DNA of 64,000 nt from an uncultured Clostridia bacterium (GTDB lineage Bacteria; Bacillota; Clostridia; TANB77; CAG-508). Shown here one piece after another: positions 18,821 through 19,427 of the stretch. Within the stretch, counting starts at the first letter, position 1. Every line of letters starts with the position of its first letter. Location: contig CAUWAY010000003.1 in the NCBI GenBank assembly GCA_963556905.1, forward strand, positions 920-64,919. Direction: 5' to 3'. The position numbers and the translations under genes are program-made. Under the pieces are notes generated by a model. That model saw only the letters and a program-made list of their open reading frames with translations, had not been told where the DNA came from and did no database searches.

Positions 18821-19033
18821 TTAATTTAACAATTTTTCTGCAAAATTTTCATCTTTTATGATATTTATTGCATATTCAATTAAATAACTTTTTAATTCTT
18901 GATCTATTTTTTTATTTTCGTCTTTTGAATATTTATCAATTAATGGCATTATTTTATTTATTACTAAAATTAATGATACTTCGTCTGTTTTTGCTTTTGA
19001 TAATAATTCATAAAATTTTGTTTTATTTTTCAT
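18821..19033 (-). CDS. Sigma-factor region 2.1-2.2-like small protein (RsoA-like partner subunit)
   Basis: 70 aa, [37 protein letters not shown]...DQELKSYLIEYAINIIKDENF. This resembles the N-terminus of TcdR/UviA-group sigma factors and sigma region 2.1-2.2. The RBS is GGAGGTAG. The start overlaps the stop of the upstream sigma-like gene. Confidence 0.5.
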   Translation of the reverse strand: MKNKTKFYELLSKAKTDEVSLILVINKIMPLIDKYSKDENKKIDQELKSYLIEYAINIIKDENFAEKLLN

Positions 19034-19427
19034 TTTCTACCTCCAGATAATCTTTTAACTTTTCAATAGCTTTATTTTTCAATTTACTCACTGCACTTTC
19101 AGTTATATTCATTCCATTTGCTATTTCTTTCAAATTTTTATTTTGGTAATAATACTGTATAATTACTTTTTTTTGTTTTTGAGTTAGCTTCTCTATTGCT
19201 CTTTCTAAATCTTCATTTTTACAGTCTTCTTCACTCAAAAAGGAATGAGTAAAATTGTCTACATTAGACAAAAATTCCCATTCCTCATTAGACATAGATA
19301 TTTCTTTATCTAGTAAGTATTTTTTATGCTTTAAATAATCAATTCTTTTATGTAATAATGCTATTCTCATATAATTTATATAATTAGCAAATACAATATC
19401 ATCTTTATATTCAATACTTTTTTCCAA
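19023..19427 (-). CDS. Sigma-70-family protein carrying regions 2.3/2.4 and 4 only (SigO-like subunit)
   Basis: 134 aa with a TTG start and a GGAGGT RBS. DDIVFANYINYMRIALLHKRIDYLKHKK is region 2.3-2.4-like. LTQKQKKVIIQYYYQNKNLKEIANGMNITESAVSKLKNKAIEKL is a region-4 HTH. Confidence 0.6.
   Translation of the reverse strand: MEKSIEYKDDIVFANYINYMRIALLHKRIDYLKHKKYLLDKEISMSNEEWEFLSNVDNFTHSFLSEEDCKNEDLERAIEKLTQKQKKVIIQYYYQNKNLKEIANGMNITESAVSKLKNKAIEKLKDYLEVENEK

Follow-up and report, generated by a model that had tools for sequence, protein, structure and literature searches.

Can one bacterial sigma factor be made as two separate polypeptides whose overlapping genes stand in the opposite order to the halves of the protein? 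This question is raised by a pair of small open reading frames (ORFs) in a 64,000-nt stretch of DNA from an uncultured Clostridia bacterium (contig CAUWAY010000003.1 of assembly GCA_963556905.1, positions 920 to 64,919), the whole of which is referred to below as the window. A preliminary description of the window had read these ORFs as the halves of a single TcdR/UviA-type sigma factor made as separate polypeptides, the gene of the C-terminal piece lying upstream. This reading is supported by colinear hhalign alignments, by the predicted fold of the small protein and by the conservation of the split, and we consider it probable that the pair represents two halves of one group-5 (TcdR/UviA-type) sigma and that this sigma activates transcription of an integrative conjugative element (ICE).

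Both genes lie on the minus strand (Table 1). The gene of the 134-aa (large) protein is located 5′ of that of the 70-aa (small) protein, and the two overlap by 11 nt (ATGAAAAATAA, 19033..19023), the TAA of the former falling within codons 3–4 of the latter. A GGAGG (19044..19040) within the large gene stands 6 nt 5′ of the small-gene ATG. Coordinates and sequence thus bear out the layout first described, i.e. two overlapping frames with the ribosome-binding site of the second inside the first. That both ORFs are real, conserved genes is evident from their homologue clusters and from their ratios of nonsynonymous to synonymous substitution (dN/dS). Homologues of the small protein form 172 clusters at 90% identity, nearly all of exactly 69–70 aa; every one of them is annotated ‘hypothetical’ and comes from metagenome-assembled genomes (MAGs) of gut Clostridia. 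Those of the large protein form 92 clusters at the same identity, nearly all of 130–150 aa, and a protein identical to that of the window was found on 176 contigs. The median pairwise dN/dS, 0.21 for the small and 0.31 for the large gene, shows purifying selection on both.

The C-terminal part of the large protein is readily recognized. Pfam Sigma70_r4 matches residues 77–125 (2.9e-14) and Sigma70_r4_2 residues 72–125 (7.7e-09), revealing a sigma-4 helix-turn-helix (HTH) domain, and PDB searches return sigma-4 matches to FliA, WhiG and RpoS. Matches to general sigma models begin well inside the profiles: TIGR02937 (sigma70-ECF, where ECF stands for extracytoplasmic function) is matched at profile positions 52–165 of 165 and TIGR02985 at positions 50–162 of 162 (both NCBIfam). 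Since these models match only from about profile position 50, the large protein looks like a sigma factor without its N-terminal third. Helix 4 of sigma-2 was assigned to it from the colinear NCBIfam and hhalign alignments, and the protein would be composed of a region 2.3/2.4-like helix 4 (FANYINYMRIALLHKRIDYLKHKK, at its start), a linker and the sigma-4 HTH.

The small protein is predicted to supply what the large one lacks. AlphaFold2 (AF2) modelled it with a predicted local distance difference test score (pLDDT) of 90.2 and a sigma-2-like fold, in which it resembles the first three sigma-2 helices. For profile–profile comparison with hhalign we aligned a reference set of seven TcdR/UviA/BotR/TetR/TcsR-family genes from clostridial plasmids, which adjoin tcdB or BhlA/UviB-type holin genes. 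The small family aligned to TcdR residues 2–63 (96.9%, E 1.9e-10), residues 1–130 of the large family to TcdR 60–178 (98.3%, E 1.5e-14), and twelve concatenated small + large pairs to TcdR 4–178 of 182 (98.8%, E 1.3e-16) over 173 colinear columns. Because the small, large and fused alignments to TcdR are colinear, the two pieces, as placed by these alignments, meet at a single position of a TcdR-type sigma, leaving neither gap nor overlap and no part unaccounted for. Homology of the 70-aa protein to sigma region 2 is thus found in a profile search, namely in the alignment to TcdR 2–63. Its likeness to the TcdR N-terminus, noticed earlier, was checked on a real TcdR-like gene (L048: MQKSFYELIILSRSNSAENLQELLITFKPLIKKLS) and has the statistical support of hhalign.

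When this alignment is read against ECF sigma-2, which is how helices and regions were assigned here, the small protein would provide sigma-2 helices 1–3, resembling regions 2.1–2.2, and with them the contact to the beta-prime clamp helices. The break within sigma-2 would then fall in the loop between helices 3 and 4, which forms the −10 base pocket in ECF sigmas. The two chains may in this way reconstitute one sigma-2 and act jointly as a two-subunit sigma.

Several results weigh against this assignment. The 70-aa protein has no match in Pfam, NCBIfam or PHROGs, sigma models included, hhalign produced no alignment between it and region 2 of E. coli RpoE, and a Foldseek search of the PDB gave nothing significant, the best TM-score being 0.59, to SigC. 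The large and fused profiles, when run against PDB sequences, recovered sigma-4 only. AF2 modelling of an artificial 70 + 134 fusion, from an unpaired and partly misaligned alignment, reached a pLDDT of 61.6, with residues 70–139 below 50; the model is poor, and packing of the first helix of the large protein onto the small protein is therefore unsupported by it. In one genome (L047, 1141–1347) the small gene is an orphan that lacks its large counterpart and adjoins the gene of a 765-aa repeat protein. Lastly, the TcdR-type promoter consensus TTTACA-N14-19-GTTATA does not occur in the window. Neither protein of the pair had a Pfam Sigma70_r2 match, so that a check by domain models gives Sigma70_r4 on the large protein but no Sigma70_r2 on the small one; no RsoA-named NCBIfam model was among the matches of the small protein, and its family profile found only chance-level matches in PDB sequences. 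The single E. coli RpoE was matched by hhalign in sigma-4 only, and weakly. A tblastn search of plasmids and phages returned nothing for the 70-aa protein and sigma-4 matches only for the fused query.

Some of these observations would suit a different division of labour, in which the large protein alone is a sigma-4-type DNA-binding activator or a partial sigma, and the small one a modulator (a sigma-2 mimic displacing the host sigma from the beta-prime clamp helices, an anti-sigma or an adaptor) rather than an obligate second subunit. Strong recognition by sequence models is indeed limited to sigma-4, one genome has the orphan small gene, and the AF2 fusion model shows no confident packing of the two pieces. 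However, the two pieces add up to an entire TcdR-type sigma in which no segment is absent or occurs twice, and the region-2.4-like helix kept by the large protein would hardly be useful if the remainder of sigma-2 were lacking. The two genes are, moreover, adjacent and coupled in about 38 of 40 genomes (see below), and both parts are required in the SigO–RsoA precedent (PMC10028694). We regard such a division of labour as unlikely, though not far-fetched. It is improbable, in our judgement, that the two proteins are unrelated small helical regulators (e.g. a LuxR/GerE-type HTH protein with a helical accessory protein) that owe their sigma likeness to an AT-rich, Lys/Ile/Asn-rich composition bias. 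What speaks for a bias of this kind is that both families are of low sequence diversity (effective number of sequences, Neff, 1.5–3) and compositionally biased, as the TcdR family is, and that the Foldseek and RpoE comparisons were negative; the hhalign statistics given above speak for a true sigma relationship.

The split itself is conserved. In a scan of one genome per species the small gene was present in 40 genomes, with the large gene directly upstream in about 38 of them, and where upstream sequence exists the large gene immediately precedes the small one in all but one genome. Six junction offsets occur among relatives (−11, −17, −4, +1, +2 and +4 nt), and every junction type retains two ORFs and the GGAGG in the 3′ end of the large gene. 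The arrangement persists down to 40% identity. When 1.84 billion representative proteins were searched with HMMER, the small-family profile found 53 clusters, all of 35–106 aa, and no full-length sigma with such an N-terminus; a wider profile that included HTH_16-type proteins gave 367 matches, the best 120 of which measure 67–128 aa. Fused single-gene relatives, for which the preliminary description had suggested a search, are absent in canonical order (small then large) from the same 1.84 billion proteins. A 206-aa in-frame fusion in genomic order (large then small; P0205) occurs on a single 1.7-kb metagenomic contig and is most simply a frameshift or sequencing error, and one MAG (L008) has a decayed copy in which both genes are truncated. 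We conclude that the split is old. That the pair is a broken gene, left by a recent frameshift or rearrangement of a single-chain sigma or by an assembly artefact, can hardly be true: the P0205 fusion and the truncated copies speak for it, but no single frameshift could restore a normal sigma from the swapped order, two ORFs are kept in all six junction types, the split recurs across hundreds of clusters and some 38 genomes at species level, purifying selection acts on both genes, the 1.84 billion proteins include no fused homologue of canonical order, and the identical 134-aa protein recurs on 176 contigs. These findings exclude a recent frameshift or rearrangement.

A two-subunit sigma of this kind could work as follows. 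A bicistronic, translationally coupled mRNA would give both proteins in similar amounts. The small subunit would dock on the beta-prime clamp helices via its region-2.2-like helix, while the large subunit would bring the −10-reading helix (region 2.4) and a −35-reading sigma-4 bound to the beta flap; on the SigO–RsoA model (PMC10028694), both would reconstitute a sigma on core RNA polymerase. Because the break falls in the sigma-2 helix 3/4 loop, both chains would contribute to the −10 pocket. If Tn916 is taken as a model, the holoenzyme would fire a promoter of the element, for which TTCGACAAA-N21-TAATAT is a candidate, and the sigma operon would be positively autoregulated. The transcript would pass the leader terminator, both sigma genes and a conserved RNA of ~430 nt, and would then reach the PemK, resolvase and serine-recombinase genes and, in the circular form of the element, the co-directional transfer genes.

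The leader of the operon contains candidate signals for such control. The motif TTCGACAAA is found on the gene strand, 280–710 nt 5′ of the large gene, in 17 of the 19 loci examined, and within the clade that includes the window a second copy, TTCGACAGA, is likewise conserved, at about −1.73 to −1.77 kb. The two window sites share the consensus TTCGACA(A/G)A and have a TAATAT or TATAAT 21 nt further on; elsewhere in the window the motif is not enriched. We consider TTCGACAAA-N21-TAATAT a candidate promoter element or operator of the sigma operon. Closer to the large gene are two hairpins. The upstream, terminator-like one, which cmscan also reported as a perfect hairpin, is shared by the clade to which the window belongs and may act as an attenuator. 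The other pairs the Shine-Dalgarno sequence of the large gene, and a weaker CCAAU/AUUGG(AG) version of it occupies the same place in other clades. Both hairpins suggest tight control, by attenuation or at translation.

On the other side of the pair lies a structured RNA. A nhmmer profile located it in 46 loci, invariably right after the small gene, and the conservation of the region equals or exceeds that of the flanking genes. RNAalifold predicts eight helices with 46 pairs, 18 of them with compensatory (double-sided) changes, against 3–6 such pairs in slid controls; 94% of cells are paired in the predicted structure versus 38–46% in the controls, and none of 500 shuffles attained the observed pairing and covariation values. 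Invariant or near-invariant G-U pairs agree with transcription in the gene direction. The RNA had no match in Rfam, and no sequence similarity was detected between it and the equivalent region of an E. faecium element considered below. The downstream operon with its ‘structured leader’ had been put forward as a target of the sigma factor. The leader proves to be a real, conserved RNA with covariation, but its place, 3′ of the pair and on the path of one transcript with it, makes it resemble a canT-position element rather than a promoter target. In Tn916, canT is a cis-acting processive antiterminator RNA in the same position (PMC11658703). We hypothesize a canT-like role by this analogy, which makes the RNA a candidate cis-acting antiterminator or leader for the downstream PemK–recombinase genes. 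It is also a candidate new RNA family.

Table 1. Positions in the window of the gene pair, of its candidate control elements and of neighbouring genes
Feature	Position	Strand	Remarks
Large-subunit gene, Orf7-like	19427..19023	minus	134 aa; TTG start; protein begins MEKSIEYKDDIVFANYINYMRIALLHKRIDYLKHKK
Small-subunit gene, Orf8-like	19033..18821	minus	70 aa; ATG start
Junction, putative translational coupling	19023..19044	minus	GGAGG and 11-nt overlap; layout recurs in relatives
13-bp hairpin ACCUCUGUUCAAU / AUUGAAUGGAGGU	19436..19471	minus	Pairs the Shine-Dalgarno sequence (GGAGG) of the large gene; read from sequence
Strong hairpin and T-run, intrinsic-terminator-like	19513..19563	minus	Leader, ~90 nt 5′ of the large gene
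Motif TTCGACAAA, then TG-n-TAATAT 21 nt on	19868..19835 (motif 19868..19860)	minus	Head of the leader of the putative sigma operon
Second motif copy TTCGACAGA, then TATAAT 21 nt on	21146..21154	minus	5′ of the AbrB/MazE-like and receiver operon
Conserved structured non-coding RNA, ~430-450 nt	18371..18820	minus	Directly 3′ of the small gene; ends in hairpin and T-run
Divergent Cro/CI-type HTH gene, 88 aa	20024..20290	plus	Faint Pfam HTH_3 match; identical gene in L001-L006; position of Tn916 orf9
Stand-alone receiver-domain protein	20326-20772	minus	Small operon with the AbrB-type gene; all six sister loci
AbrB/SpoVT (MazE_antitoxin)-fold protein	20833-21081	minus	C-terminal Cys-rich segment; all six sister loci
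55-aa ORF overlapping PemK/MazF-type toxin gene (131 aa)	17820-18357	minus	55-aa ORF with hydrophobic N-terminus
Three consecutive serine-recombinase-related ORFs	13114-16181 and 12364-12846	minus (13114-16181)	520, 267 and 256 aa; mark the element end
RiPP-like cassette (ribosomally synthesized and post-translationally modified peptide): Cys-rich 71-aa peptide (…CSCNCSSGCSACSSSCGSCTSCSTSCS) and radical S-adenosylmethionine (rSAM)-SPASM enzyme	23848..23633 (peptide) and 23605..22490 (enzyme)	minus	
MobA/VirD2 relaxase	36156..37499		In window

The element that carries the pair is an ICE of roughly 13–55 kb, almost all of whose genes share one strand. Its hallmarks are a relaxase, a TraG-like ATPase, a sortase, a SpaA adhesin (a 1367-aa SpaA-type adhesin is encoded in the window) and serine recombinases, beyond which lie host genes that vary from one locus to another; a prophage reading of the window was rejected on the presence of the relaxase, the TraG-like ATPase and sortase/SpaA. 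Six loci (L001–L006) have a constant block, which starts with the TraG-like ATPase, the sortase and cargo and continues with a Cro/CI-type HTH gene, an AbrB/MazE-like gene, a stand-alone receiver gene and a divergent HTH_3 gene. Then come the large gene, the small gene and ~460 nt without ORFs, and the block ends with the 55-aa ORF, the PemK toxin, the DUF6075–resolvase, two small ORFs, three serine-recombinase ORFs and variable host genes. The pair thus sits in the ICE regulation module adjoining the recombination end. On the Tn916 model (PMC5812530), the 88-aa HTH protein is a candidate repressor of the sigma operon, and the AbrB-type and receiver proteins may be additional regulators.

Among the other neighbours, the product of the 55-aa ORF has no recognizable antitoxin domain, and the DUF6075–resolvase fusion (309 aa) comes after the PemK/MazF-type gene. 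Past the recombinases, the flank in the window and in L001 is a hydrogenase/NADH-dehydrogenase cluster, and other copies of the element adjoin mur genes, acetyltransferases or glycosyltransferases. Because the flanking host genes differ between copies, the element has several integration sites. A penicillin-binding protein at 57.6–59.4 kb presumably belongs to the host. Two tRNA genes at 2933–3097 (plus strand) are in the host flank, well outside the element.

The RiPP-like cassette had been named as a second candidate target. In four of the six otherwise identical loci (L002–L004 and L006) different cargo takes its place, which makes such a role unlikely, and as variable cargo swapped out in sister elements it was rejected as a conserved sigma target. 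The targets of the pair are probably neither toxin nor RiPP genes.

Comparison with known systems begins with the group-5 sigmas TcdR, UviA, BotR, TetR and TcsR, the closest demonstrable sequence family, with which the small and large proteins are colinear end to end. Members of that family are single chains of ~175–190 aa, whereas here the sequence is split after about residue 63 and the halves stand in swapped order. The neighbours of TcdR-family genes are toxin, bacteriocin or UviB-holin genes. The preliminary description had expected similar targets next to the pair, but no toxin, bacteriocin or UviB-holin genes adjoin it; its neighbours are ICE genes, at the regulation/recombination end of the element. 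In a strict sense, therefore, the pair is outside the single-chain TcdR family. Two-protein sigma substitutes are also found in phages, namely gp55 + gp33 of T4 and gp33 + gp34 of SPO1; T4 has no sigma-4-type −35 recognition, and its gp33 couples to the sliding clamp. Neither phage pair has a demonstrable sequence relationship to the window pair.

A relationship could also be demonstrated to the Orf7/Orf8-type pairs of Tn916-like elements, which the earlier description had not named. The regulatory region of Tn916 consists of divergent orf9, orf7, orf8, a long non-coding stretch and recombination genes; Porf7, the promoter of orf7 and orf8, is switched on by the products of these two genes, and transcription proceeds into xis/int and, once the element has excised, into the transfer genes (PMC5812530). 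The same transcript also crosses canT before it reaches xis/int. As in Tn916-type elements, a Sigma70_r4 protein (~130–150 aa) is followed immediately by one of ~70 aa, and the pair is preceded by a repressor-like HTH gene of opposite orientation and followed by a long stretch without coding sequence, beyond which lie the recombination genes at the end of the element. The recombination genes differ, being Xis/tyrosine integrase there and serine recombinases here. Sequence links exist as well. The small-family profile, searched against 1.84 billion proteins, found three distant members (E 3e-8 to 3e-4) that match Pfam HTH_16 (PF12645) with 36.6, 30.8 and 27.5 bits against a threshold of 22; the small protein of the window itself has no HTH_16 match at E<=10, and its HTH_16 link is transitive only. 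Elements of E. faecium have this gene order too, and one of them encodes a 151-aa Sigma70_r4 protein, then a 73-aa HTH_16 protein (55 bits), then xis/int. By hhalign its Orf7-like protein aligns to TcdR 70–177 (96.6%) and its Orf8-like protein to TcdR 4–38 (72.7%), and a profile including HTH_16 (through this Orf8-like protein) aligns to TcdR 1–63 (97.5%, E 7e-12). Because of the HTH_16 links and the alignments of the E. faecium proteins, the split-sigma reading seems to extend to the whole Orf7/Orf8 class, of which the window pair seems to be a divergent, unannotated subfamily using serine recombinases.

The papers searched refer to Orf7 as a sigma factor and to Orf8 as an HTH protein (PMC12229494). 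Full-text literature searches, which may have missed subscription literature or database notes, gave no description of the two as a two-subunit sigma. More tentatively, and with somewhat more doubt than confidence, we propose that Orf7/Orf8-type pairs across Firmicute conjugative transposons, Tn916-like elements and the gut-Clostridia subfamily alike, are all natural two-subunit group-5 sigmas with the −10 pocket at the chain interface, and that in the gut-Clostridia subfamily the ~430-nt RNA, which was previously undescribed, makes the sigma-initiated transcript terminator-resistant. Homology ties the window pair to the regulators of the Tn916 family, whose members are major vehicles for antibiotic resistance, and if Orf7 and Orf8 were halves of one sigma, activation of Tn916 would have a concrete, testable mechanism. 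A break point inside sigma-2 would be a natural AND gate, of interest to synthetic biology. The small subunit has so far been annotated merely as a ‘hypothetical protein’, without a Pfam domain.

The last comparison is with SigO–RsoA of B. subtilis (YvrI–YvrHa), to our knowledge the only natural two-subunit bacterial sigma studied. In the sigO-rsoA operon the gene for the sigma-4 protein precedes the small gene for the sigma-2 protein. The name ‘SigO-RsoA-like’, given to the pair in the preliminary description, holds for this gene order and for the architecture, i.e. sigma-4 and sigma-2 functions on separate polypeptides encoded in one operon, and the likeness is limited to these two. SigO–RsoA governs a chromosomal acid-stress regulon and has a membrane regulator, RsiO, whereas the pair described here is part of a conjugative element and lies in its regulatory module. 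The position of the break may also be different: the title of Xue et al. 2016 reportedly places a region 2.3-like segment in RsoA, and here the region 2.3/2.4-like helix is apparently on the large protein. SigO (sigma-4) and RsoA (sigma-2) must cooperate at PoxdC (PMC10028694), and by analogy the window pair may work in the same way. Split sigmas were named as a topic to expand in the 2021 reclassification of ECF sigmas (PMC7826278). The pair would add to SigO–RsoA a second two-subunit-sigma lineage, related to TcdR and conserved in many uncultured gut Clostridia, and if the same is true of all Orf7/Orf8 pairs, two-subunit sigmas would be a widespread control of horizontal gene transfer rather than a curiosity of B. 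subtilis.

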